Positions 3,741-59,444 of a stretch of 64,000 nucleotides of DNA are shown piece after piece (the first letter of the stretch is position 1; each line of letters starts with the position of its first letter). The position numbers were made by a program, and so were the translations under genes. A model generated the notes under the pieces. That model searched no databases. It worked only from the letters and a program-made list of their open reading frames with translations, and was not told the origin of the DNA. Source of the stretch: Minisyncoccota bacterium (GTDB lineage Bacteria; Patescibacteriota; Minisyncoccia; Phycocordibacterales; Phycocordibacteraceae); assembly GCA_018062445.1 (NCBI GenBank), contig JAGOSG010000001.1, positions 58,426 to 122,425 of the forward strand. Reading direction: 5' to 3'.

Positions 3741-3828
3741 AGAAGCTTTCAGGTGTCAGCTGTTAGCTTTCAGCTTTTGATTATTTTGAATTTAAAGCTG
3801 GAACCTGTAAGCTAAAAGCTATAAGCTC
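3741..3828. repeat. AGCTTTCAG-type heptad-array repeat (inverted arms) downstream of dnaK
   Basis: agctttcaggtgtcagctgttagctttcagctttt … aagctggaacctgtaagctaaaagct; member of a family seen at 13 or more loci. Confidence 0.7.
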
Positions 3829-4908
3829 ATGAATAAGGATTACTACCAACTTCTCGGTGTCGACAAAAAAGCCTCAAAAGAGGATATAAAGAAAGCATTT
3901 CGTAAGCTCGCACATCAGCACCACCCTGACAAGAAAGGTGGCAATGAGGCGAAGTTTAAAGAAGTGAGCGAGGCCTACAGCATACTGTCTGACGATAAAA
4001 AGCGTGCAGAATACGATTCGTATGGAAGAGTGTTCTCAGGTGGCGCGGGACCTCAAGGGGGCCAAGGAGGAGCTGGATTTGAAGGTTTTGATTTCTCACA
4101 ATTTCAAGGAGGTGCTGATTTTGATGTCGACTTGAATGACATATTCGGAGGATTCTCTGATATTTTCGGTGGCAGGGGCAGGCAAGCTCGTGGCAGAGAT
4201 ATATCGGTTGATTTAGAGCTTTCGTTCAAAGAATCAATTTTCGGACTTACGCGTAGAATGCTCATCACTAAAGATAGTACTTGCTCTAAGTGTGCTGGTT
4301 CAGGAGCAGAACCAGAAACTAAAACAAAAACCTGCCCAACCTGTAATGGTAAAGGACAAGTAGTTGAATCTCGTCGTTCTCCTTTTGGAACATTCTCCGT
4401 GTCGACAGCCTGCACAACCTGCAGTGGGAGGCGTGTTGTGCCTGAGAAACCTTGCACCACCTGTAAAGGATCGGGTGTGCATCGCCGTCAAGAAGAGATT
4501 ACGGTGGTTATTCCAGCAGGAATTGATAACGGACAAGTTATTCGTTTGGCAGGTTTAGGGGAAGCAATTTCTGGAGGAGCAACAGGGGACTTGTATGTGA
4601 AAGTACATGTACGACCTGATGCAAAATTTAGAAAAGAGGGCTTTAACTTAATCACCGATCTTCCTGTAAAAGTTTCAGACGCGTTAATTGGCGCTGAATA
4701 CCAACTCGACACTCTTGATGGCACGGTTACCGTAACAGTGCCCCCACTACAATCAACCGATGAAATTCTTCGCATGAAAGGTAAGGGTGTTCCAACGGAG
4801 AGAGGGAAGCGAGGTGATCTTCTTATACGTGTTCGCGTTGAATTTCCACAAAAGATTTCAAAAGAAGCAAAAGAGTTACTTCAAAAATTGAAGAAGGAAG
4901 GAATCTAA
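3829..4908 (+). CDS. dnaJ: chaperone DnaJ
   Basis: J-domain with HPD (AHQHHPDKK), Gly-rich linker, four CxxCxGxG zinc-finger repeats. Confidence 0.95.
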
Positions 4909-13793: not shown

Positions 13794-13824
13794 TAGCTTT
13801 TAGGTGTCAGCTTCTAGCTTTTAA
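13794..13824. repeat. AGCTTTCAG-type heptad repeat (single arm)
   Basis: atagcttttaggtgtcagcttctagctttt. Confidence 0.6.
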
Positions 13825-18991: not shown

Positions 18992-20056
18992 ATGATTATT
19001 GACCTTCTTAAAGTTTTTGTCCCATCCGTAATTGCTTTCTGGGTAGGTATTGCCATTGCTCCACTTCTTACGCACTACCTTTATAAGTACCGCGTATGGA
19101 AAAAACAACCAGGAAAAAAAGCCCTCGATGGGCAGGTTGCTGTTGAGTTCGCAAGACTCCACGGAGAAACTGAAACAAAAACTCCACGCATGGGAGGCAT
19201 TCTTGTGTGGGCATCAGTTATTCTTACTATCGCTCTACTTTGGGCTCTTCAATATATTTTCCCAAACTCATCAACTACAAAACTCCTCTTTCTTTCACGG
19301 TCTCAAACATGGATACCTTTCACAACCCTAATTCTTGGCTCATTAGTCGGACTTATTAACGATATTCTCGATGTTGTTGATCGAAATGGTGAGAAAGGTA
19401 TTCCACTGAAAATTCGACTTTTATTTGTTGCCGTACTTTCCTTTTGTATTGGCTGGTGGTTCTATACAAAACTCGACATAGCTTCTATTAGTATGCCGTT
19501 TGGCGATCCTCTCTATATAGGATGGCTTGTCATACCATTCTTCATGCTGGTTTCTTTATTTCTCTACGCATCAGGGGTTATCGATGGAATTGATGGCTTG
19601 TCTGGGGCTGTGTTTGCATCTATCTTCACCGCATACGCCTTTATTGCATTTCACCAAAACCAAATAGACCTAGCCGCATTTTGTGCAACGATTGTTGGAG
19701 CGCTCCTCGCTTTTCTCTGGTTCAATGTACCTCCTGCCAGGTTTTGGATGACAGAAACCGGCACAATGGGTTTAACACTCACCGTTGCTGCTATTGCATT
19801 TATGACCGATACCCTTGGTGAAGGTAGGGGGCTTCCTGCACTACCAATTATTGCGTTCTTACTTGTCGTAACAGTGCTTTCAAATATTATTCAGGTGTTC
19901 TCAAAAAAAGTTTTTAAGAAAAAAGTTTTTAAAATCGCTCCACTCCACCATCACTTTGAAGCAATAGGCTGGCCAGGGTCTAAAGTCACCATGCGCTACT
20001 GGATTCTTTCTATTATTTTTGCAATTCTCGGTGTTTCTCTTGCACTCCTCGGCTAA
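18992..20056 (+). CDS. mraY: phospho-N-acetylmuramoyl-pentapeptide transferase
   Basis: Polytopic membrane protein, conserved PLHHHFE motif, GT4/MraY family. Confidence 0.85.
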   Translation: MIIDLLKVFVPSVIAFWVGIAIAPLLTHYLYKYRVWKKQPGKKALDGQVAVEFARLHGETETKTPRMGGILVWASVILTIALLWALQYIFPNSSTTKLLFLSRSQTWIPFTTLILGSLVGLINDILDVVDRNGEKGIPLKIRLLFVAVLSFCIGWWFYTKLDIASISMPFGDPLYIGWLVIPFFMLVSLFLYASGVIDGIDGLSGAVFASIFTAYAFIAFHQNQIDLAAFCATIVGALLAFLWFNVPPARFWMTETGTMGLTLTVAAIAFMTDTLGEGRGLPALPIIAFLLVVTVLSNIIQVFSKKVFKKKVFKIAPLHHHFEAIGWPGSKVTMRYWILSIIFAILGVSLALLG

Positions 20057-22500: not shown

Positions 22501-22539
22501 CTAGGTGCCAGAGTATAGCTTCCAGGGTTTCAGCTTTTT
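22501..22539. repeat. AGCTTTCAG-type heptad repeat (single arm)
   Basis: ctaggtgccagagtatagcttccagggtttcagcttttt. Confidence 0.55.
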
Positions 22540-22575
22540 AAATTTCTTAAATCAAATAAAGACAAAAGAGCGGTG

Positions 22576-22611
22576 TATAGTATAATTTAACGATCGTTAA
22601 ATTATACTATA
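22576..22611. repeat. 36-bp perfect palindrome TATAGTATAATTTAACGATCGTTAAATTATACTATA (copy 1 of 4)
   Basis: Perfect dyad centred on CGATCG; related copies at 32309, 33926 and 39893. Confidence 0.85.
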
Positions 22612-22742
22612 TCGTTAAAAACTAAAAAAACTGGCACCTAAAACCTACAAAGAGACTTTATAGCTGTCACTCACTCGGGGAAGGGCAATAATGCCCCTCT
22701 TCCCACTCGCTTCGTTAGGCTGTAACCTATACACTAAGCTCT

Positions 22743-24188
22743 ATGAAAGTAATTACCCGCTTCGCTCCCAGTCCCACAGGCTTTATGCATATCGGCGGTG
22801 TCCGTACGGCACTATTTGCCTATCTTTTTGCCAAGAAAAATGAAGGCACGCTAATACTCCGTATCGAGGATACCGATCAAGCTCGGGCAATAGAAGGCTC
22901 CATTCAACATATTCAAGACTCTCTTTCGTGGCTTGGTATTGATTGGGAATATGGCCCCGACAAACCAGGGCCTTTCGGTTCTTGCATTCAATCAGAGAGA
23001 ATGGACTCATATAGAGCATTTGCACAGAAGCTCATGGACGCGGGCCATGCGTATCCCGATCCGTACACTCATGATGAAATAACGGCATTTAGAGAAACGG
23101 CTAAAGCTGAAAAACGACCGTTTTTATTTCGAGATCATCGCCCCGAAACATTTTCTGTATGGGACGGGAAGGCACCACTTCGCTTTAAGGTACCGGAAAT
23201 AAAAAGATACAAGTGGAATGACGCTGTCCGAGGTGAGCTTGAAGCAGGCGAAGAAGCTCTTGATGACTTCATTCTCATGAAGGGCGATGGGTACCCAACG
23301 TATAACTTTGCACATATTGTTGACGATCACCTCATGGGTGTTACTCATATTTTTCGTGCGGACGAATTTATTTCTTCAACGCCACGATTTCTTAGTTTGT
23401 ACGATGCTCTTGGTGTTCCGGCGCCTGTCTTTGTAACACTCCCTGCCATACTTCGCGACGATCGCACTAAAAAATTAGGAAAACGAGATGGCGCAAAAGA
23501 TGTTCTTGAATACAAAACTGAAGGCTATCTTCCGAGTGCTATGGTGAATTACCTCGCACTCATTGGATGGAACCCAGGAACCGATGAGGAAATATTTTCA
23601 AAAGACGAATTAATACAGCGGTTCAGCGTGGATCAAATCCAAAAGAGCGGGGGAGCCTTCAATGAGATGAAGCTCAAATGGTTTAATAGGGAACACATCC
23701 TAAAATTATCTTCTGATGAATTTTTGAAGCACGCCTCTCTGTTTCTTTCAAAGGAAACGTATACCGCACTTAATAAAAAGAATCTTCTTGAGAGTCTTGT
23801 CCCTCTTATGCGTGAACGCATACAAACCTTCTCTGAATTGAAAGACATGGATGAAGCAGGAGAATTTTCCTTTTATGCAGAGGCACCCACATACCCAGTC
23901 TCAGGACTATTACCAAAAGATGATATGGATAAGCAAAGAACTGCGACACGCTTGAAGCAAGTTATGTCACTCCTTAATACCTTGAACGATTCTGAATGGC
24001 ATGATCAAAAAATTAAAGAGGTTGTTTGGCCATACGCTGAAGAAAAGGGCAGGGGACTTGTGCTGTGGCCGTTTAGGTTTACGCTTTCAGGTAGAGGTAA
24101 ATCCCCTGACCCATTTACCATTGCGGGTGTCATAGGTAAGAAAGAAACAATAACCCGTATTGAAGACGCTATTCGTGCCCTCGGATAA
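22743..24188 (+). CDS. gltX: glutamate--tRNA ligase
   Basis: PSPTGFMHIGG (HIGH) and KLGKRD (KMSKS-like); 481 aa. Confidence 0.92.
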   Translation: MKVITRFAPSPTGFMHIGGVRTALFAYLFAKKNEGTLILRIEDTDQARAIEGSIQHIQDSLSWLGIDWEYGPDKPGPFGSCIQSERMDSYRAFAQKLMDAGHAYPDPYTHDEITAFRETAKAEKRPFLFRDHRPETFSVWDGKAPLRFKVPEIKRYKWNDAVRGELEAGEEALDDFILMKGDGYPTYNFAHIVDDHLMGVTHIFRADEFISSTPRFLSLYDALGVPAPVFVTLPAILRDDRTKKLGKRDGAKDVLEYKTEGYLPSAMVNYLALIGWNPGTDEEIFSKDELIQRFSVDQIQKSGGAFNEMKLKWFNREHILKLSSDEFLKHASLFLSKETYTALNKKNLLESLVPLMRERIQTFSELKDMDEAGEFSFYAEAPTYPVSGLLPKDDMDKQRTATRLKQVMSLLNTLNDSEWHDQKIKEVVWPYAEEKGRGLVLWPFRFTLSGRGKSPDPFTIAGVIGKKETITRIEDAIRALG

Positions 24189-24190
24189 CA

Positions 24191-25558
24191 ATGAAATGGA
24201 TACCTCCATTTAAGAATTCTATTTCTTTTGTATCGGTTTTTATCGGACTTTTTTTGTTTTTTGGGATTCTAGGATTTTCTCAAACCTCACCTACGATAGT
24301 TTTTGGTGATACCACCTCAGACATCCAAGAAAAAATAACTGAACAGAATGCCAAAATCGCAGCATTGGAAAAAGAAATTGCACAGTACGAAAGCACGCTC
24401 TATCAAATAGCCGGAGAAAAAACAACACTGCAAGGAGAAGTAAACAGAATTGATGTTTCTAGAAAAAAAATAGGAGCAACTATTTCAGTTACAGAAAATA
24501 AAATTGCTTCGGCAACACTACAGCTCAAACGCCTCGGTGGGGCTATTGATGATAAAGCAAAACGTATAGAAACTTCCAAGAAGACAATGGAGCAATCTTT
24601 CCAAGCTCTCTATCAGATAGGTGAGACCACGATAGTTGAACAACTCCTGAGTGCAGATGGGATGATTGAGGTCTGGCAAGAAGTAGATCGTGTAGAGCAA
24701 CTCAGTAGTGTTCTCAGAAATGAAGTTATTGATCTTCAAAATACAAAAGAATCTCTTACGGCGGACTATAGCACTACAGAAAAAGAGAAAGCGAAACTTC
24801 TTTCTTTGAAAAAGCAATTGTCTGATCAAAAAATACTTCTCGATCAAAATCGCAACGAGCAGGCCACACTACTTGCACAGACAAAAAATAAGGAATCTGC
24901 GTTCCAAAAACTACTTGCAGATAAACAGGCCGCAAAAGCTCAATTTGAAAAACAACTTAATGACTACGAAGCGAGCCTGAAATACACACTTGATCCAACA
25001 AGTATCCCAAAGGCAGGTAGCGGAGTTCTTTCATTTCCACTTGATTCTGCCTTTATGCTTCGCTGTAGGGATCGCACCAATACATTCAAAAATATATATT
25101 GTCTTACGCAATACTTTGGCAATACTGCATTCGCTCAAAGTGGTGCATACAATGACAAAGGTCACAACGGTGTAGATTTTGGAGCACCTGAAGGAACGCC
25201 TATTGTTTCAGCCTTGGGAGGTGTCGTTGTCGATACGGGCAACACAGATCTTTTCCGTGGTTGTTACTCATACGGTAAATGGGTATATGTACGCCATAAC
25301 AACGGACTAGGCACTATTTATGCCCACCTATCAGTCATTAGCGTCTCTAAGGGCTCTACAGTAGGCACAGGGAGTCTCCTTGGGTACAGCGGTAAGACAG
25401 GATACGCCACCGGACCACATCTCCATTTCAGCGTATATGTGGCAAGTGCCGTTAAAATTATTAAGCTTGGTGATGTGAAATCAATAACAAAGTGTGCTGG
25501 AGCCTATATGCCAGTAGCCCCTACGGAGGCCTATTTGAATCCGATGAAATACCTTTAG
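24191..25558 (+). CDS. M23 family metallopeptidase with N-terminal TM and long coiled coil (EnvC-like)
   Basis: GHNGVDFGAPEGTPI and HLHFSVY motifs of LytM/M23. Confidence 0.8.
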   Translation: MKWIPPFKNSISFVSVFIGLFLFFGILGFSQTSPTIVFGDTTSDIQEKITEQNAKIAALEKEIAQYESTLYQIAGEKTTLQGEVNRIDVSRKKIGATISVTENKIASATLQLKRLGGAIDDKAKRIETSKKTMEQSFQALYQIGETTIVEQLLSADGMIEVWQEVDRVEQLSSVLRNEVIDLQNTKESLTADYSTTEKEKAKLLSLKKQLSDQKILLDQNRNEQATLLAQTKNKESAFQKLLADKQAAKAQFEKQLNDYEASLKYTLDPTSIPKAGSGVLSFPLDSAFMLRCRDRTNTFKNIYCLTQYFGNTAFAQSGAYNDKGHNGVDFGAPEGTPIVSALGGVVVDTGNTDLFRGCYSYGKWVYVRHNNGLGTIYAHLSVISVSKGSTVGTGSLLGYSGKTGYATGPHLHFSVYVASAVKIIKLGDVKSITKCAGAYMPVAPTEAYLNPMKYL

Positions 25559-25612
25559 CTAGGGGTTAGGGTATAGGGTTTAGCGATTAGGCGACGCCCC
25601 GTCGGATCCGAA
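25548..25612. repeat. composite repeat: TTAGGG-like heptamer array plus tandem-hairpin element (reverse orientation)
   Basis: gctaggggttagggtatagggtttagcgattaggc + cgacgccccgtcg + ggatccgaagggatc. Confidence 0.7.
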
Positions 25613-25665
25613 GGGATCATTTATTATGGAGATGCAAATCCGAAACCTCACACCGCAAACAAACT

Positions 25666-26187
25666 CTAGTGGTGGTTTTTATTAAGATACAAAAGCCTAA
25701 CGAGAATAGGGAGGTCGCTCTTTGTTTTTTCTCCCCCCTCAATTCTCTTGAGTAAATCTAAAGGTTTAAACCAAAAAGATTCAAAGAAATCAGTTGGATT
25801 GTAGTCTGGTACAGTATCCATTTTCAATTCAAATATCATTTGAAACGCTTTGAGTCCATGCTCTCCTCCTTTAAAATACCCAATAACTTTGTAAGGAACC
25901 ACTCCAGTGTCAATATTTAACTCTTCCGCCATTTCACGCCTAAAAGTTTGTTCATATGTTTCTCCACTTTCAACATGACCACCCATACTCATATCGAGCC
26001 CAAGAGGTGCAATTTGTTTATGAGCTGTGCGTCTAGGAATCCATAACTCTCCGCTTGAATTCACAATAAAGGCATTTACCGCTCTGAAGTTATTTAGATG
26101 TTTAGCGTGCACCTCAGAACGCTTTTCTCGTCCTATGACTAGGTCATTTTCATCAACAAGATCAAGATACTCGTCGGTGTTATCCAT
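25666..26187 (-). CDS. Nudix hydrolase
   Basis: Nudix box GGHVESGETYEQTFRREMAEELNI. Confidence 0.8.
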   Translation of the reverse strand: MDNTDEYLDLVDENDLVIGREKRSEVHAKHLNNFRAVNAFIVNSSGELWIPRRTAHKQIAPLGLDMSMGGHVESGETYEQTFRREMAEELNIDTGVVPYKVIGYFKGGEHGLKAFQMIFELKMDTVPDYNPTDFFESFWFKPLDLLKRIEGGEKTKSDLPILVRLLYLNKNHH

Positions 26188-26367
26188 AACGCTTATATAT
26201 ATTTCATTAAATATATCACGCTACCAAAAGTAAAATTTGACCTCACCAATCGAGTTAGAAAAAAACAATCCACACCGACAAGTTAAGTATCCTTGCGAAG
26301 GTTATTTTAGGTGTTCAATGTATTAGTAAAGTCATTATTAATAGTTTTAGATAATTAATATATTTAT

Positions 26368-28937: not shown

Positions 28938-28948
28938 ACGCTTTTATT

Positions 28949-28979
28949 AAAAAACCTCCCCGCATGGGGAGGTTTTTTA
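28949..28979. terminator. bidirectional intrinsic terminator
   Basis: AAAAAA-CCTCCCC-gcat-GGGGAGG-TTTTTT. Confidence 0.8.
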
Positions 28980-30025: not shown

Positions 30026-30457
30026 TTATTTTTGAGCCAGCGTAGCTCCTTCTGTCGATTTCTTTGAGAGAGGTCCCCAACAAGCTTTAGAAGATGCCCA
30101 AGGCTTTGTACCCTCTTTCTCATACAAACGCTTAGCGTAGGCAAGGTTACCGTCAAGGGTGTGCAAGTCGAGATTCATAGCCTCTGCTTGCTCTTCATGA
30201 TACTTGGTATTAATTTGCATCACCCCTATATCCTTAGGATTGACGACGCCACGCAATATATCGCCCTCTTTATCGACATGACGAATTCTGGACTCACACC
30301 ATGCTATATCGGCCAAAATAGGCGTATCAGCGTAGTACTGCTTCACATACTGTCCTAAGGTTTCCACCTTTGGACCTTCTGGGTTTGTGGTCGTAGAAAG
30401 TGCTGTGGGCGTAGACATGGCAACGCTCGCTAGCAATAGCATAATTGGTAAGAACAT
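30026..30457 (-). CDS. secreted lysozyme-like / lytic transglycosylase-domain protein
   Basis: Signal peptide; …IAWCESRIRHV…GVMQIN…YHEEQA…GNLAYAKRLYEKEG…CW resembles the transglycosylase-like domain. Confidence 0.55.
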   Translation of the reverse strand: MFLPIMLLLASVAMSTPTALSTTTNPEGPKVETLGQYVKQYYADTPILADIAWCESRIRHVDKEGDILRGVVNPKDIGVMQINTKYHEEQAEAMNLDLHTLDGNLAYAKRLYEKEGTKPWASSKACWGPLSKKSTEGATLAQK

Positions 30458-30545
30458 ACGATTTAATGATTTTGGCCCATAGGGGCCGTTAGTGATGATG
30501 TAAACCTGCTTTGAGTTCCCCTTCGTAATAATCGAAATTGGGGTA

Positions 30546-30572
30546 CTAAAAAAGCCGGCCCGAAAGCCGACT
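30546..30572 (-). terminator. minus-strand intrinsic terminator about 220 nt downstream of the LOG gene
   Basis: On the minus strand: AGUCGGC-uuucgg-GCCGGCU followed by UUUUUU. Confidence 0.5.
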
Positions 30573-30729
30573 ACCTCACTACGCTAGCACTGGGAACTTT
30601 TGGTGTCAAGGCTTGCGGAACCAAAAAACACTCTTCTACGGCTCTACAGAGCCACAAAAATGCTGGTGGGGAAATAGAGGTTTTTAAGATATTTTCGACG
30701 TTGAACCCTCCCGCGAAAACGACGAGGCT

Positions 30730-30789
30730 TGTTCCCTACGGAACCGACGAGGCGTCGCCTAAACGCTAAACCTTACCCTCTATCCCCTC
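30730..30789. repeat. composite repeat: tandem-hairpin element plus CCCTAAA-like heptamer tail
   Basis: GTTCC-ctac-GGAAC, CGACG-agg-CGTCG, then cctaaacgctaaaccttaccctctatcccc. Confidence 0.7.
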
Positions 30790-30792
30790 TTC

Positions 30793-31524
30793 TTAGCATT
30801 TGACGAGCTTCAAAATTTCCTGATGAGCCTCTTCAGGAGTGTCAGCCACCACAAAAAGGTCTAAATCTTCCTTGTTGATGGTCTGATACTTAATGAGGAG
30901 GTGTTCTTTAAAGAAGTTGAGGAGTGGTGTCCAGTATTCCCTATTGTAGAGAATTATAGGAATCCGCTTGATTTTGTTGGTTTGAACTAAGGTCAAGATC
31001 TCAAACAACTCATCCATAGTCCCAAAACCGCCCGGGAAGTAGATATATACCTCAGAGGCAAAGGAAAGCATCACTTTCCGAGTGAAGAAATAATTAAAGA
31101 GGGCCGTGTCGGTGAGGTAGGGATTAACGTGCTGTTCAGTTGGAAGTTTGATGTTAAGCCCTACAGATTGCCCTCCTGCTTCAAATGCTCCCTTACTTGC
31201 AGACTCCATAACACCTCCTGCACCACCTGTAATAACCACAAATCCTGATTTAGCGAGCTTCTCCGCAAGCAATCGCGCATCTTCATATACCTTTGGATTC
31301 ATATGAGAACGAGCTGAACCAAAGAAGGTCGCAGCCAGACGATATTTCCGGAGCATGGAGAATCCATCAATCAATTCACCCATTATCTTAAAAATACGCC
31401 AAGACTCCATGTCTTTAGTGTGGTCAGTTTTTTCAGGATCACAGACACGAAAATCCCCTTCCATGCGATGTTCGCCAGGAGGATTTACTATTCGGTATTT
31501 TCTTTGCGGATCAGACATGGTCAA
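30793..31524 (-). CDS. LOG family protein (TIGR00730; cytokinin riboside 5'-monophosphate phosphoribohydrolase-like)
   Basis: GGAGGVMES… and PGGFGTMDELFE (PGGxGTxxE) motifs. Confidence 0.85.
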   Translation of the reverse strand: MTMSDPQRKYRIVNPPGEHRMEGDFRVCDPEKTDHTKDMESWRIFKIMGELIDGFSMLRKYRLAATFFGSARSHMNPKVYEDARLLAEKLAKSGFVVITGGAGGVMESASKGAFEAGGQSVGLNIKLPTEQHVNPYLTDTALFNYFFTRKVMLSFASEVYIYFPGGFGTMDELFEILTLVQTNKIKRIPIILYNREYWTPLLNFFKEHLLIKYQTINKEDLDLFVVADTPEEAHQEILKLVKC

Positions 31525-31544: not shown

Positions 31545-31581
31545 TAGCTTACAGCTTTCAGGTGTCAGCTTTCAGCTTTTT
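31545..31581. repeat. AGCTTTCAG-type heptad repeat
   Basis: tagcttacagctttcaggtgtcagctttcagcttttt. Confidence 0.6.
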
Positions 31582-32195: not shown

Positions 32196-32240
32196 TTAGT
32201 TAGGGGTTAGTGTTTAGGGTATAGGGTATAGGGGTAAATG
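32196..32240. repeat. TTAGGG-like heptamer array
   Basis: ttagttaggggttagtgtttagggtatagggtataggggtaaatg. Confidence 0.7.
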
Positions 32241-32308: not shown

Positions 32309-32352
32309 CCTGTATAGTATAACTTAACGATCGTTAAATTATACTATACAGG
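32309..32352. repeat. 44-bp palindrome CCTGTATAGTATAAcTTAACGATCGTTAAATTATACTATACAGG (copy 2)
   Basis: One mismatch to a perfect dyad; followed by a T-run. Confidence 0.85.
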
Positions 32353-32388: not shown

Positions 32389-32423
32389 TGAAAGCTAGAA
32401 CCTAGAAGCTAGCACCTAGAGCC
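32389..32423. repeat. AGCTTTCAG-type heptad repeat (opposite arm)
   Basis: tgaaagctagaacctagaagctagcacctagagcc. Confidence 0.55.
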
Positions 32424-32427
32424 TTCT

Positions 32428-32832
32428 TCACATCCCATTACAACGGCCAGCGTGGTAGCCGGCACCCTCAGCGGAAACCCTACTGCTGAAATAAATTCTG
32501 TCCATTGAAGAAATCTTTACCGCAAGTGGGCACCATGGGAAAAAGTAAGTACTTCCTATCTTCGACGCTACAAAATAGCCCGCAACCTGAGGTAGTGGCG
32601 GTAAGGTAATTTCCTCTCTAATACCACCAACACCCAAGAATCCAGTGAGAGCTGAAGCACTTTGACCATTTGGATAGATCACCTTAAATTGGCCTTTTTC
32701 TCCGTAGAAAACAGATAATCTCCCAAGCCCAAAGGCCAACGATGCAACTAACACAATAACGATAACAATTAGTGTGTTTTCCCATACTCTCGCCCCTAGA
32801 GCCTTGATTTTATTAATGAAATCACGAAACAT
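32428..32832 (-). CDS. hypothetical protein with N-terminal TM helix
   Basis: 134-aa ORF, no family recognised. Confidence 0.45.
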   Translation of the reverse strand: MFRDFINKIKALGARVWENTLIVIVIVLVASLAFGLGRLSVFYGEKGQFKVIYPNGQSASALTGFLGVGGIREEITLPPLPQVAGYFVASKIGSTYFFPWCPLAVKISSMDRIYFSSRVSAEGAGYHAGRCNGM

Positions 32833-33293: not shown

Positions 33294-33315
33294 GCATCCG
33301 TCCCGCATCAATAAA

Positions 33316-33346
33316 CAAAAACTCCGCACATGTGCGGAGTTTTTTA
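33316..33346. terminator. bidirectional intrinsic terminator shared by convergent rpmA and rplI
   Basis: AAAA-ACTCCGCACA|TGTGCGGAGT-TTTTT, a perfect 20-nt palindrome. Confidence 0.8.
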
Positions 33347-33925: not shown

Positions 33926-33968
33926 ACCTGTATAGTTTAATCTAACGATCGTTAAGTTATACTATACA
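33926..33968. repeat. 44-bp palindrome family, diverged copy 3
   Basis: cctgtatagtttaatctaacgatcgttaagttatactatacag. Confidence 0.8.
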
Positions 33969-34022
33969 GATCTTTTTATCTTTAGGGTTCCCCTGTTTGG
34001 CTTAGAGAATTGAAAAACCAGA

Positions 34023-34078
34023 TGATCCCTTCGGATCCGATGAAGTATCGCCTAGTCACTAAACGCTAAACCCTTCTA
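34023..34078. repeat. composite repeat: tandem-hairpin element plus CCCTAAA-like tail
   Basis: GATCC-cttc-GGATC, CGAT-gaagt-ATCG, then cctagtcactaaacgctaaaccc. Confidence 0.7.
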
Positions 34079-34079
34079 C

Positions 34080-35294
34080 TTACTTTCCTGTAATCAAAAA
34101 CTCCGCAGCCCTTTCTAGTTGAGGGTCACGCTTTGCATCTATATCTTCCTCAGTAACTGCCACTTCAATATCAGGAACTATACCCTCATGAGAAATAGAG
34201 ACTCCATTAGGGGTTAGCCAGCGAGCAATAGTTATTTTTAATGAAGTATCTGCGGTTACATTAAAAAGTTGCTGTACCGACCCTTTACCGAATGATTTTC
34301 CACCAATAAGAGTTGCCTTGCCATGATCACGGAGTGCTCCCGCTAGAATCTCTGATGCAGAGGCGGAACCTTCGTCAATTAGAATCGCAAATTTTACCTT
34401 GTCAGAAAAAACATCATACCCACGACTTCGACTAACATCAGGAGCCTGCTTAGAACCAAAATCTTCGGTAACTATCACCTTCCCTACTGGCAAAAACCAA
34501 CTAGCAATGTCAACGGCCACCTCCAAGTAACCACCAGGGTTACCACGAAGGTCAATAATCATTTTATTGGAACCTGAATCAGCAAACTCACGGATAGCCT
34601 GACGGAACTTCTCGGGAGCATTTGCATTGAATGTAAAAAGGCGGATTACAAACACGCCATCAGGTCGCGATGTTGTCTTAATGGTTGGGAGATTGATAGT
34701 GGCTCGAACTAGCGTTACATCAAATGGAGCATCTTTGCCACGAATCACTGTGATAGTGACCGGCGTACCAATTTCTCCTCGAATAACACTGACTGCATCA
34801 TCAACAGATATGCCTACAGTATCTTTACCTTCAATTTTTAGAATGATGTCCCCGCTCCTCATTCCAGCCTTTGATGCAGGCGTACCTTCAAGTGGCGCTA
34901 CTACGGTAAGGATTCCATCTTTAAGACCTAACTCCATCCCAACACCACCAAAATCACCTTGAACTTGGCTATCAAAAAGCTTTTTCTCTTTTGGAGGGAA
35001 AAAGGTTGTATAAGGATCACCATAAGAAGAAGCGAGGCCTTCTATCATTCCCCACAACCTATCTTCATCGGTACTCGTTGCCGTAGTGGTGGATGGAGTA
35101 AAATTTTGATCAAGTAATTCCCACGCCTTAAATAATGGCTGTAGATCCGCCTTTGAATAATCTGTAGCGCCACGCGCCTGAGTTGTCCAAGGAACCATTC
35201 CTCCAGCTTCTGTACCAACAAAGAAGGCAACAATGGCAACAAGTACTACCGCTATCAGTGCAGTGCGAAGTCCAATTTTAGAATTGTCTTTCAT
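34080..35294 (-). CDS. ctpA: carboxyl-terminal processing protease (S41) with PDZ domain
   Basis: N-terminal TM, PDZ, S41 core IDLRGNPGGYL. Confidence 0.88.
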   Translation of the reverse strand: MKDNSKIGLRTALIAVVLVAIVAFFVGTEAGGMVPWTTQARGATDYSKADLQPLFKAWELLDQNFTPSTTTATSTDEDRLWGMIEGLASSYGDPYTTFFPPKEKKLFDSQVQGDFGGVGMELGLKDGILTVVAPLEGTPASKAGMRSGDIILKIEGKDTVGISVDDAVSVIRGEIGTPVTITVIRGKDAPFDVTLVRATINLPTIKTTSRPDGVFVIRLFTFNANAPEKFRQAIREFADSGSNKMIIDLRGNPGGYLEVAVDIASWFLPVGKVIVTEDFGSKQAPDVSRSRGYDVFSDKVKFAILIDEGSASASEILAGALRDHGKATLIGGKSFGKGSVQQLFNVTADTSLKITIARWLTPNGVSISHEGIVPDIEVAVTEEDIDAKRDPQLERAAEFLITGK

Positions 35295-35326
35295 TGTTTC
35301 CTATTATGCCACAGAGAAGCGTTTAG

Positions 35327-35403
35327 GGTTTAGGGAATAGCGTTTAGGTTTGTGAATCTCTAAAATTTTTCCCCTAAACGCTGACCACTAAACACTAACC
35401 CCT
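35327..35403. repeat. inverted pair of TTTAGGG/CCCTAAA heptamer arrays in the divergent ctpA/corA promoter region
   Basis: agcgtttagggtttagggaatagcgtttaggtttg … cccctaaacgctgaccactaaacactaacccc. Confidence 0.7.
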
Positions 35404-35420
35404 GCTGGTATACTGTTCTG

Positions 35421-36398: not shown

Positions 36399-36435
36399 GC
36401 CCTAAACCCTATACCCTAGTGGCTAAACCCTAATT
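36399..36435. repeat. CCCTAAA-type heptamer array
   Basis: gccctaaaccctataccctagtggctaaaccctaatt. Confidence 0.7.
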
Positions 36436-36506
36436 CAGATGTGCAAAACTCCGTGTACAAACCTCCGCATAACGGCTCTTTTTATAGATTTCTTTAAAAA
36501 CGACGA

Positions 36507-37911: not shown

Positions 37912-37988
37912 AGGTGTCAGGTTTCAGCTGTCGGCTTTCAGCTTTGAATTCAGAAAAAGCTGGCACCTGGCACCTGAAAGCTGTAACC
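37912..37988. repeat. AGCTTTCAG-type heptad repeat, both arms (near-identical to the copy at 53139)
   Basis: ggtgtcaggtttcagctgtcggctttcagctttgaattcagaaaaagctggcacctggcacctgaaagctgtaacc. Confidence 0.75.
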
Positions 37989-37996
37989 TATTCAAT

Positions 37997-39309: not shown

Positions 39310-39350
39310 CCTTAGGGTCTAGGGGTCAGCGTTTAGGGTTTAGGTATTAG
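39310..39350. repeat. TTAGGG-type heptamer array just upstream of rplU
   Basis: ccttagggtctaggggtcagcgtttagggtttaggtattag. Confidence 0.7.
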
Positions 39351-39351
39351 T

Positions 39352-39531
39352 TTTTAAAGCTGAACGTCGGCCTCAGGCGCCCTTCTACTTAAAGTACGCA
39401 AAAGTCCTGCAATCAAATGGGCAGGTATTTTATCTAGAGACTCAGGTCTCGCAAGTGCATTTGCCCGCTCTGGCCGAGTTCCACGACGCCCACGCTTACG
39501 CCTAGAAACAGTTTCGTTCTTTGCTTCATTC
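39352..39531 (-). CDS. hypothetical 59-aa Arg-rich protein upstream of rplU
   Basis: MNEAKNETVSRRKRGRRGTRPERANALARPE…; ORF only, below the ORF-track cutoff. Confidence 0.25.
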
Positions 39532-39892: not shown

Positions 39893-39938
39893 TACCTGTA
39901 TAGTATAATTTAACGATCGTTAGATTATACTATACAGG
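39893..39938. repeat. 44-bp palindrome family copy 4 (ACCTGTATAGTATAATTTAACGATCGTTAgATTATACTATACAGGT)
   Basis: One mismatch to a perfect dyad; T-run follows. Confidence 0.85.
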
Positions 39939-41957: not shown

Positions 41958-41991
41958 CTAGGGTTTAGGGTTTAGTGAATAGTGTTTAGAG
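41958..41991. repeat. TAGGGTT heptamer array immediately upstream of glmS
   Basis: ctagggtttagggtttagtgaatagtgtttagag. Confidence 0.7.
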
Positions 41992-42039
41992 AAAGACTCA
42001 GCTAATACTACCTGAAAGACACGCATTCGGTAACAGCAA

Positions 42040-49190: not shown

Positions 49191-49233
49191 CTGAAAAGCT
49201 GGAAGCTGACAGCTGGCACCTGAAAGCTACTAG
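49191..49233. repeat. AGCTTTCAG-type heptad repeat (opposite arm)
   Basis: ctgaaaagctggaagctgacagctggcacctgaaagctactag. Confidence 0.6.
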
Positions 49234-53138: not shown

Positions 53139-53215
53139 AGCTGTCAGGTTTCAGCTGTCAGCTTTCAGCTTTGAATGCAAAAGCTGGCACCTGGAAGCTG
53201 GCACCTGGAAGCTAC
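53139..53215. repeat. AGCTTTCAG-type heptad repeat, both arms
   Basis: agctgtcaggtttcagctgtcagctttcagctttgaatgcaaaagctggcacctggaagctggcacctggaagctac. Confidence 0.75.
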
Positions 53216-53219
53216 TACA

Positions 53220-55115: not shown

Positions 55116-55155
55116 GAGCCAGGTTGTAGGTGTGAGGTGTGAGCTTTCAGGTAAC

Positions 55156-57557: not shown

Positions 57558-57680
57558 AGTGGTATGCGATATTGTAAGTGGCATTGCAAAAATACGCAAT
57601 GCCCACGAATTAGAACATATTTTAGATAGAAAAAATCCTATCTCTGCTCTCCTTTTCTGTAGTCCTTGTGGATCTGATGA

Positions 57681-57720
57681 GGTGTCACCTGAAAGCTGAA
57701 AGCTGGCACCTGAAACCTAC
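57681..57720. repeat. AGCTTTCAG-type heptad repeat
   Basis: ggtgtcacctgaaagctgaaagctggcacctgaaacctac. Confidence 0.6.
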
Positions 57721-59444
57721 TTCACCATCTCTGGTCTTTCACTAACAATAAAACGAAGCACCTCTCCCATCACCGCAGGTGCCCCTTGCGGTGTGCCTGC
57801 CTTTGCGCGTTCCATCACCACCGCAAATGCATACTTAGGACTCTCATAGGGGAAGAATCCAACAACAAGTGAGTTGATGGATTCTTTACGCGCGCCAACT
57901 TCTGCAGTCCCTGTCTTTGCAGCGGCACGCACCCCAGGGACAGCGAGCGCTTGCGCCAAGCCTTCCGTAACAGCAAGTCGCATACCTTCCCGAACAACCT
58001 CTAAGTTACTAGAACTTACTGCGACATTTGTATGTAATCCATTTTGTCCTACTTCAATCACTGGTGTAATTAACATTCCATCGTTTGCAATCGCTGCAGT
58101 GCTCCGAACTAACTGCATCACCGTTACCTGAAAGCCGTACTGCCCAATTGCTGTGTGGTATGTGTTTCCAAGAAACCACCGCTCTCCATCAAACATGTTT
58201 GCTTTCCACTCTGGGTCTGGAACTGTACCAAATTCTTCACCTGACATTGGTACACCTGTTTCTTTTCCAAAACCAAACATACGCATGTACTTATCAATTG
58301 TTGCAATGCCAAGTCCCGCTTGGTCTTGATACCCGCCACCTATCGCGTAGAAATAAACATCAGACGACACTGAGAGCGCTTTGCGAATATCAACCCACCC
58401 ATGTGCTTTCCAATCTTTAAAGACAGAGGGCTTAGAAGGATCATACGGATTGGGAATGGAAATTGATCCAGTCGATAAAATTTGCTTGGTGGGACTAATG
58501 ATGCGCTCTTGGAGTGCGGCACTCGCCATAAAAGGTTTTACCACCGAGCCCGGCGTGTAGAGCCCTGAGACTGCCCGATCAAGAAATGGTGAACGATCAC
58601 TGGCAAGGAGTTTTGCAACAGCATCTTTAGGTGAACCGCTCGACATAACTTCAGGATCAAACGACGGATAACTCACTACCGCTAAGAGCTCCCCTGTTTG
58701 TACATCCATAATTACACCAGAACCACCACGCCATTTTGACTCCTCAGACCGATTGGCAATGGCTTCATGCATTGCCTTTTGAAGACCTGCATCAATGGAA
58801 AGACGAATGTCACTCCCAGTCTTTGCGGTGCGCACCATACTGCCTGAAACCACATTTCCCGATGCATCTGTTTCAGCAATACTGAGACCATTCGTCCCAG
58901 AGAGTGCCTCATCATACAAAGACTCAACTCCAACAACACCTGCCGTGTGATCTTGGTACCAATACCCATTTTGATCCGCTTTTGGATACGACACATACCC
59001 CACCAACACTGACGCAGAAGAACCAAAAGGATATTTCCTTGTTGCAAAAAGGCCGAGAGGCGCATCTTTTTTTGTCGTTGAAGAAGCGAGTGTTTCTGAT
59101 ATTCCCGCTGTATTACCTGCCAAGACTACTCCAGTACGATCAAGAATAAGACCACGGTCAGCAATAATTACTGAATGTGCAAGTCGATTGGCTTCAGCGC
59201 GCGCAGATAAAGACTGATATTGGACAATCTGTAAATTAATCAGTGCTCCTATAAATATGACCCCAACAAGCAAGACAATAGAAAAAAAACCAGTGAATAC
59301 GGAAGTACCTACAGGCCTCTCAATTCTTCCTTCAAGTCTAGAGGTATCGAACGCAGGCAGGTTTGCTGCATCAATAAGAATTTCGTCAGGTTCAATTTCC
59401 TGATATCGTTTTTTTCGATTAAAGATGCGACGAAATATAGTCAT
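57717..59444 (-). CDS. mrdA: penicillin-binding protein 2 (elongasome transpeptidase)
   Basis: SxxK (SVVKP), SxD, KTGTAEV; adjacent to mreBCD. Confidence 0.88.
   Translation of the reverse strand: MTIFRRIFNRKKRYQEIEPDEILIDAANLPAFDTSRLEGRIERPVGTSVFTGFFSIVLLVGVIFIGALINLQIVQYQSLSARAEANRLAHSVIIADRGLILDRTGVVLAGNTAGISETLASSTTKKDAPLGLFATRKYPFGSSASVLVGYVSYPKADQNGYWYQDHTAGVVGVESLYDEALSGTNGLSIAETDASGNVVSGSMVRTAKTGSDIRLSIDAGLQKAMHEAIANRSEESKWRGGSGVIMDVQTGELLAVVSYPSFDPEVMSSGSPKDAVAKLLASDRSPFLDRAVSGLYTPGSVVKPFMASAALQERIISPTKQILSTGSISIPNPYDPSKPSVFKDWKAHGWVDIRKALSVSSDVYFYAIGGGYQDQAGLGIATIDKYMRMFGFGKETGVPMSGEEFGTVPDPEWKANMFDGERWFLGNTYHTAIGQYGFQVTVMQLVRSTAAIANDGMLITPVIEVGQNGLHTNVAVSSSNLEVVREGMRLAVTEGLAQALAVPGVRAAAKTGTAEVGARKESINSLVVGFFPYESPKYAFAVVMERAKAGTPQGAPAVMGEVLRFIVSERPEMVK

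Follow-up and report, generated by a model that had tools for sequence, protein, structure and literature searches.

A two-hairpin palindromic module fused to intergenic heptamer arrays in groundwater Parcubacteria, a possible miniature insertion element

Introduction

The families SDR1-8 of Nostoc punctiforme were described by Elhai et al. 2008 (Genome Res 18:1484; cited in PMC4390886 and PMC5861425). Some of these families are reportedly hairpins, and a mechanism of recognition and copying similar to the one considered below was proposed for them. SDR5 inserts into HIP1 (PMC4390886), and SDRs have been reported only in Nostocaceae (PMC5861425). REP elements are extragenic palindromes of 20-40 nt with RAYT/TnpA-REP partners (Di Nocera et al. 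2013, PMC3733652; Nunvar et al. 2010, PMC2817692; Ton-Hoang et al. 2012, PMC3333891). By definition, a REP element has one stem-loop, at one end of which is an unpaired tag, GTAG or CGTC (PMC3733652), and copies exceed 100 per genome (PMC2817692); REPs of the CGTC type are also without a known transposase (PMC3733652). Intergenic tandem repeats of heptamers occur in Nostoc/Calothrix and in Xanthomonas, where they lie near the stop codon of the upstream gene, often as inverted pairs (Rehm et al. 2015, PMC4692102).

The element described here is a short two-hairpin module that is always fused to a heptamer array. It is best read, at a probability of about 0.5, as a lineage-specific miniature palindromic insertion module, comparable to REP elements and to the SDRs of Nostoc. 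It resembles both in the way it works yet falls outside both as defined, the SDRs being compared by description and not by sequence. The principal competing explanation is a cis-acting RNA structure.

Copies of the module in the window

Three intact copies, A, B and C (Table 1), are present in the window, the whole 64-kb stretch of DNA that was analysed. The first-pass annotation of this DNA had described three two-hairpin copies with compensatory changes, and a reading of the sequence finds all of them with the pairings that it gave. Its position for copy C was exact, while copy A, given at 25582-25608, is shifted by 10 nt and copy B by 1 nt. The genes named as neighbours (the M23 peptidase/Nudix pair, LOG and ctpA) agree with Pfam; a point that had been missed is that LOG and ctpA are encoded on the other strand from copies B and C as these were written. 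A 19-mer search allowing at most 3 mismatches gave 3 matches in the window against 0.01 expected by chance, and these are copies A, B and C. The covariance-model search that the first pass had suggested, run with model R1 and filters off, added a decayed fourth copy, whose minimum-energy structure lacks the module fold and whose CT-phased tail adjoins the stop of a PBP2-like gene.

The unit is 27-28 nt long and consists of two abutting 5-bp hairpins (TG-GATCC cttc GGATC-CGAYG arg CRTCG-CC). In the conserved form, (A/G/T)TG-GATCC-CTNC-GGATC-CGAYG-ARG-CRTCG-CCTA, 21 of 27 columns are invariant, most of them having been fixed by the search pattern itself; in a scan with freed stems, variation was likewise lacking at the outer pairs in hairpin 1 and, in hairpin 2, at pairs 3 and 5. 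The conserved flanks, present at copy A, are TG and CCTA. On the 3' side of each copy come 7-base repeats that start with CT, heptamers of the CTAAAC type, which form the tails CCTAATCGCTAAACC at copy A, CCTAAACGCTAAACC at copy B and CCTAGTCACTAAACGCTAAACC at copy C. The tail of copy A reaches as far as the M23 peptidase stop codon.

A noncoding block of ~270 nt separates copy B from a 143-aa ORF that has no Pfam match. This block is kept in five related genomes though the adjoining spacer is scrambled, and it has no Rfam match. Its minus strand has two hairpins resembling terminators, and the block may represent a leader or small RNA that has escaped annotation.

Table 1. Positions of the module copies, heptamer arrays, neighbouring genes and other features in the window
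Feature	Position	Strand	Details
Copy A, intact module	25592-25618	-	Exact 19-mer match
Copy A, model R1 match	25586..25622	-	58.7 bits
Copy A, hairpin 1	25618..25605	-	GATCC-cttc-GGATC
Copy A, hairpin 2	25604..25592	-	CGACG-ggg-CGTCG
Copy A, tail	25561..25591	-	CTAATCG CTAAACC CTATACC CTAACCC CTAG; CT-phased heptamer array
Copy A, array scan interval	25561-25595		
Copy B, intact module	30731-30757	+	
Copy B, model R1 match	30727..30763	+	53.8 bits
Copy B, hairpin 1	30731-30744	+	GTTCC-ctac-GGAAC
Copy B, hairpin 2	30745-30757	+	CGACG-agg-CGTCG
Copy B, tail	30758..30792	+	CCTAAACGCTAAACCTTACCCTCTATCCCCTC...; reaches the stop of the LOG-family gene
Probable truncated older module	30705..30729	+	AACCCTCC..AAAACGACGAGGCT; directly 5' of copy B
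Copy C, intact module	34024-34050	+	
Copy C, model R1 match	34020..34056	+	56.3 bits
Copy C, hairpin 1	34024-34037	+	GATCC-cttc-GGATC
Copy C, hairpin 2	34038-34050	+	CGATG-aag-TATCG; one G.T pair
Copy C, tail	34052..34079	+	CTAGTCA CTAAACG CTAAACC CTTCTAC; CT-phased array; adjoins the S41/CtpA-like stop
Decayed fourth copy	57657..57693	+	AGTCC-ttgt-GGATC, TGATG-agg-TGTCA; R1 10.4 bits, E ~0.009, filters off
Fourth copy, CT-phased tail	57689-57723		
Peptidase_M23	24191..25558	+	Pfam
NUDIX	25666..26187	-	Pfam
LOG/Lysine_decarbox	30793..31524	-	Pfam
Peptidase_S41+PDZ (CtpA-like)	34080..35294	-	Pfam
PBP2-like gene	57717..59444	-	
Heptamer arrays	3744-3832, 13795-13822, 22503-22530, 22720-22747, 31546-31580, 32202-32236		CT or AG phase
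Heptamer arrays (continued)	32395-32429, 35318-35408, 36402-36436, 37917-37994, 39314-39355, 41960-41994		CT or AG phase
Heptamer arrays (continued)	49199-49233, 53139-53218, 55121-55155, 57689-57723		CT or AG phase
Noncoding block	30457-30720		~270 nt
Terminator-like hairpins in the block	30660-30633, 30572-30553	-	
44-nt near-perfect palindrome	22572-22615, 32309-32352, 33927-33970, 39895-39938		CCTGTATAGTATAATTTAACGATCGTTAAATTATACTATACAGG
Bidirectional intrinsic terminators	19173-19204, 28947-28978, 33313-33344		AAAAA-CTCCGCA-CATG-TGCGGAG-TTTTT type

Comparison with REP elements, SDRs and other repeats

The module (core 27-32 nt) and REP elements are alike in being short extragenic palindromes whose stems are kept by compensatory changes and which are thought to act as folded single strands. 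Both are found in the two orientations, in certain lineages only, and for the most part in spacers whose flanking genes are co-directional or convergent. They differ in architecture, the module having two abutting 5-bp hairpins where a REP element has one stem of at least 8-9 bp, and the module lacks the unpaired GTAG or CGTC tag, CGTC being found only within the hairpin-2 stem of one variant. The module is present in tens of copies (3 intact ones in the 64-kb window) against hundreds for REPs, and its copies are mostly single and always joined to a heptamer array, whereas REPs form head-to-head dimers. In REP genomes a RAYT gene (Y1/HUH) is typically flanked by REPs; for the module, no RayT match was found in 720 kb, which is part of the genomes concerned.

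With SDRs, the module shares the size class of 21-27 nt and a precise placement within a host repeat, seen here as 27 nt between phased heptamers and as a pair of empty and filled sites; SDRs, too, have no known element-encoded enzyme. Unlike the SDRs of Nostocaceae, the module pattern is absent from cyanobacterial representatives and plasmids, the likeness again being one of description and not of consensus sequence. Membership in the cyanobacterial STRR/SDR families was rejected, as the scan matched only Patescibacteria MAGs and such MAGs match the window at 97.5-100% identity. A MITE was also rejected; the module has 27 nt (MITEs typically have more than 50-100 bp), no consistent target-site duplication and no IS nearby.

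The tail of the module is an array of the same kind as the heptamers of Nostoc and Xanthomonas, with spacer units of 7 nt near a stop codon, although the unit sequences and the host phylum are different and no hairpin module has been described there (PMC4692102). On the N. punctiforme plasmid pNPUN01, (AGGAGTC)n lies near the 3' ends of genes and (CTGACTC)n ahead of their starts, a polarity identical to that seen in the window. No module interrupting an array was found in 200 kb of pNPUN01, though similar heptamer arrays are present.

Occurrence among genomes

Genomes of 185,579 species, one genome per species, were scanned with a pattern that left two stem pairs free. This gave 60 copies at 53 loci, confined to four related groundwater Patescibacteria/Parcubacteria MAGs and three single contigs binned elsewhere. 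Copies of the strict pattern number ~12-17 per MAG (~0.75-Mb genome); a single contig of 749 kb (JAZJYZ010000001.1) belongs to one of these MAGs. When metagenomes were scanned with six stem pairs freed, the matches came from this clade alone, apart from one additional relative and a few chance matches. The distribution of R1 scores is bimodal: 66 copies exceed 50 bits, and hardly any are intermediate. The module was absent from the viral contigs scanned, from plasmids searched by BLAST (Nostoc plasmids included) and from all cyanobacterial representative genomes in the species scan.

The window shows 70-100% identity with module-bearing loci, in long syntenic blocks. It is 97.5% identical to a locus of a Parcubacteria (Patescibacteria) MAG (L053) and 100% identical to a contig of GCA_017992865.1, and the closest named genome is Parcubacteria group bacterium Greene0714_7. 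Module-bearing contigs are also filed under Simkania and Saccharibacteria: L008 (JAGXTH010000098.1), L022 (CAYNOO010000001.1) and L048 (CAYGDK010000097.1). The "Simkania" contig L008 is 86% identical to the window over 4.2 kb and syntenic with it, and thus belongs to this Parcubacteria clade; all three are probably mis-binned or mislabelled contigs of the clade.

Base pairing and folding

Pairing in both hairpins is kept by selection, as the first-pass annotation had argued from its three copies. Two pairs covary among 63 copies: pair 2 of hairpin 1 is A-T in 45, T-A in 8, G-C in 7 and A.C in 3, and pair 4 of hairpin 2 is C-G in 32, T-A in 28 and T.G in 3. These are the stem positions that the search pattern had left unconstrained, in copies from several genomes, and their covariation therefore places intrastrand pairing under selection. 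The first pass had allowed that further copies might lack consistent pairing; the opposite was seen, with 99.6% of cells paired in 56 distinct sequences. The observed covariation score was attained in 0 of 500 shuffles, and pairing fell to 21-40% in a slid control in which the 3' partners were shifted. Orthologous copies differ at 15 positions in all, 10 of which make up five double compensatory swaps, 4 lie in loops and 1 is a single stem change. In a divergent relative of the module, found at one orthologous site (CATCC-ctgc-GGATG + TGACG-rgg-CGTCA; L033 3426-3452, minus strand; L082 260-286, plus strand), the terminal pairs of both hairpins have been flipped compensatorily. This relative is not fused to a CT-phased tail; a CCCCTTGGGG hairpin comes next.

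Folded in isolation, modules adopt the drawn structure at -7 to -10 kcal/mol, with RNA z-scores of -0.2 to -2.3. Such z-scores are ordinary and thermodynamic significance was set aside as evidence; stability alone is unremarkable, and the case for structure rests on covariation. When 70 nt of context were folded, the minimum-energy structure contained hairpin 1 in 88% of copies and hairpin 2 in only ~38%. On the module's own strand there are ~8 G.T pairs vs 4 A.C pairs, a weak excess, and wobble and mismatch pairs are not sorted by the transcribed strand. Judged from the sequences, the evidence would fit folding at the level of DNA or of RNA.

Each hairpin is palindromic, the major variant contains GATC twice as well as GGATCC, and the primary sequence is conserved. 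These properties would suit a duplex DNA site for a dimeric protein, of the kind seen in operator-like palindromes, or an independently transcribed small RNA gene, both of which are very unlikely. All three hairpin-1 variants are found within single genomes, so that A-T, G-C or T-A stands at symmetric positions in one and the same genome, which intrastrand pairing requires and a dimer would not; a parS-like or operator-like site was rejected because symmetric positions covary in this way. A small RNA gene is difficult to reconcile with a unit of 27 nt that occurs in both orientations, has no terminator and no promoter-like site upstream of copies in their own orientation, and finds no match in Rfam. 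At the Rfam gathering threshold, only a tRNA passes in the window, and with E values up to 10 the sole overlap with a module is COG3860 RNA (17.9 bits against a cut-off of 42.5, E = 2). A micro-ORF starting from the conserved (A/G/T)TG was also rejected, since the covarying positions would be non-conservative codon changes.

Heptamer arrays and module orientation

Heptamer arrays line many gene boundaries in this narrow groundwater clade. Arrays of at least 4 units phased on CT or AG number 26 in the window, against 1.3 in shuffled sequence, with a typical length of five units. In the sense of the mRNA, arrays are AG-phased after stop codons and CT-phased before start codons, and they are near-absent within genes. 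Numerous spacers thus consist of inverted arrays, which could fold into one long hairpin with imperfect pairing. Unit sequences in this clade are CTAAACN and CTGAAAG; some units, (CCCTAAA)n, match the plant-type telomere repeat. Among 548 distinct arrays in the DNA examined, 46 carry the module at their upstream edge, and no other module family is enriched at array edges.

Heptamers are phased on the module. Counted from the first G in 78 copies, CT stands at +28 in 99% and at +35 in 74%, and recurs at +42, +49 and +56; before the module it stands at -6 in 54% and at -13 in 38%. This phasing on both sides makes the module a 27-nt block set between phased heptamers, and it usually occupies the inner edge of an array, or lies one to two units further in.

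Orientation relative to genes was assessed for 68 copies from crude ORF calls. Both flanking genes are on the opposite strand in 32 cases and on the same strand in 18, with convergent spacers in 6 and divergent spacers in 6. The tail side is always near a gene end (median ~25 nt), where it adjoins the stop codon of a gene on the opposite strand or the start codon of one on the same strand. This placement follows from the polarity rule of the arrays, and module direction is thus set by the array and not by transcription. All copies are intergenic, at most tens of bases from the end of a gene, and none lies inside a credible gene; where an ORF seems to cross a module, a better start codon is present downstream. 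The neighbouring genes have housekeeping roles (GroEL, FtsA, YbeY, LemA, GreA, PBP2, DnaB), and YbeY, LemA and similar genes lie between facing module pairs. A strict replication-strand rule was tried and rejected, local GC skew in module orientation being positive for 29 copies and negative for 50.

A possible role in spacer transcripts

The main rival to an insertion module is a cis-acting RNA in spacer transcripts, in the 3' UTR or between cistrons, kept by the host as an exonuclease barrier, a processing site or an aid to termination. Such a role is possible, though on balance doubtful. The intergenic position close to gene ends and the covariation both agree with it, and so does the retention of the module at some orthologous sites, where it is better conserved than its flanks. 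Some of the sites are old, and the module is in all likelihood transcribed within its spacers. REPs, the closest analogue, stabilise transcripts and have been reported to act in this way (PMC3733652). Read in reverse complement, hairpin 1 of copies A and C is followed by a T-rich stretch and scores as a weak terminator. However, only these two have even a weak T-rich tail, a U-tract is absent in general and the consensus flanks are heptamers, and a canonical intrinsic terminator was rejected on these grounds; the genome, moreover, has its own canonical terminators with long stems.

Those terminators include bidirectional ones of the type AAAAA-CTCCGCA-CATG-TGCGGAG-TTTTT (three in Table 1), a family which shows that ordinary terminators serve at some of this organism's gene ends. 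A second dispersed family is a 44-nt near-perfect palindrome, CCTGTATAGTATAATTTAACGATCGTTAAATTATACTATACAGG, found four times in the window and in at least 16 distinct copies in related genomes. It is flanked by A-runs and T-runs and looks, from its sequence, like a bidirectional terminator.

Further observations weigh against a role in the transcript. Loop and flank conservation is the same in both orientations, even in divergent spacers, where there is no 3' end. Hairpin 2 forms in a minority of contexts, the stability z-scores are ordinary, wobble pairs do not track the mRNA strand, and most sites differ between genomes that are ~85% identical. The first-pass reading of the element as a structured RNA motif is therefore upheld only in part: the pairing is selected, but the two orientations, the polarity tied to arrays, the turnover of sites, the truncated and nested copies, the poorly formed hairpin 2, the lack of a general U-tract and of an Rfam match, and wobbles that are not sorted by strand all count against it.

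Turnover of sites and composite copies

Modules have been acquired at some sites and lost at others, exchanged for a different variant, and nested. In L035 and L050, the L9/ctpA spacer orthologous to the site of copy C has inverted arrays only, without the module. Copy A and the entire Nudix gene (together 25584-26258) are missing from the 97.5%-identical locus L053, a gene-sized indel bounded by arrays; only ~26 nt of other heptamers stand in their place there. Conversely, L007 and L014 have a module copy where the window has an array only, and L035 and L050 have copies at two further spacers in which the window has none. A comparison of L008 with L035 gives a clean pair of empty and filled sites, with the module exactly at the array edge. 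The site of copy B is occupied in six genomes or assemblies (orthologous loci L053, L008, L058, L050 and L035), by GTTCC/CGACG in the group of the window, by GATCC/CGATG with a different upstream flank in L050, and by a decayed copy in L035.

Several module sites are common to genomes that are ~15% diverged. Pairs of intact orthologues share 96% identity over the module, a figure overstated because the comparison is conditioned on both copies matching the search pattern; identity is 88% in the 30 nt upstream, 74% in the tail and 82-86% in the outer flanks, which are mostly coding. The primary sequence of the module is thus almost invariant across genomes whose spacers are otherwise scrambled, and the arrays are the fastest-evolving part of the spacer.

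Composites, in which a 5' module cut just past the hairpin-2 loop is followed by an intact module, were found at seven sites, including that upstream of copy B. The sequence 5' of copy B ends just past the hairpin-2 5' arm and loop, with a visible CGACGAGG duplication, and is probably the remnant of an older truncated module, to judge from this layout and its recurrence at at least six other sites. The recurrent breakpoint suggests site-specific cutting, or template switching at the hairpin. Direct tandems of two intact modules of different variants, one to three heptamers apart, are present at L012 3994-4078 and L034 5523-5601, and this arrangement could be the precursor of the truncated-plus-intact composites. 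The module flanks show no consistent target-site duplication. The first-pass annotation had foreseen that the elements might turn out to be fragments of a known mobile element; turnover and nesting of an insertion-like kind were indeed seen, but no known element matches.

These data bear on a further alternative, in which the module is a by-product of array dynamics that arose once and spread passively by slippage, unequal exchange or gene conversion, without any recognition machinery, conversion between arrays keeping the copies alike. In favour of this alternative, every module copy is joined to an array. Arrays are common, with 26 of them in the window (1.3 in shuffles) and 548 in the DNA examined, and they change fastest within spacers (74% identity); variants are swapped at orthologous sites, and no enzyme was found in 720 kb, part of each genome. 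Passive spread is nevertheless quite unlikely. The arrays are short (~35 nt), imperfect and of several sequence types, and so offer little homology for conversion, and this explanation does not account for the pairing kept through double changes, for the 21 of 27 positions that never vary across genomes or for the recurrent breakpoint of truncated copies.

A possible miniature insertion module

The near-invariant sequence in both orientations, the polarity shared with the arrays, the turnover of sites and the nesting of copies together fit a small insertion module best. Under this explanation, constraint would act on a folded single strand, most simply of DNA, and a putative sequence-specific activity would recognise the fold and copy the module into array edges, by copy-and-paste or by templated repair, a step comparable to the one ascribed to REPs with RAYT. 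The need for recognition would keep the sequence constant. Once inserted, the module would be transcribed as part of the spacer, adding two small stem-loops to the array hairpin, and these may be neutral or mildly useful for transcript 3' ends.

Not all observations favour an insertion module. The low copy number (~12-17) and the absence of target-site duplications count against it, and the sites common to ~15%-diverged genomes, at which the module is better conserved than its flanks, would also fit a host function. In 720 kb, which is part of each genome, neither a transposase nor another candidate enzyme was found: a search with E. coli RayT as query (phmmer and tblastn) gave no RAYT homolog, and there was no multi-copy gene family, no gene family recurring next to modules and no IS near them. 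A more ambitious proposal is that module and arrays form a gene-boundary system, kept by a dedicated enzyme, specific for sequence and hairpin, that copies elements of less than 30 nt without a classical transposase. Such a system is unlikely; the mechanism of its enzyme could be that proposed for the Nostoc SDRs and, if the proposal were true, the protein might be identified by simple phyletic profiling in a ~700-gene genome.

Implications

Patescibacteria are regarded as extremely streamlined, and miniature palindromic repeats together with pervasive boundary arrays are unexpected in them. The finding is real and statistically solid: a miniature palindromic dispersed repeat in an unexpected host group. 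In the literature searched, no description was found of such a palindromic repeat family, or of boundary heptamer arrays, in Patescibacteria. The module and its arrays mark this clade and its mis-binned contigs, and they explain the fast evolution of its spacers. What machinery moves very short repeats has been a question since the SDRs of Nostoc and the CGTC-type REPs; if the module is mobile, genomes of ~0.75 Mb offer a very small search space for such machinery, and identifying the copying machinery in these minimal genomes would raise the significance of the module family.
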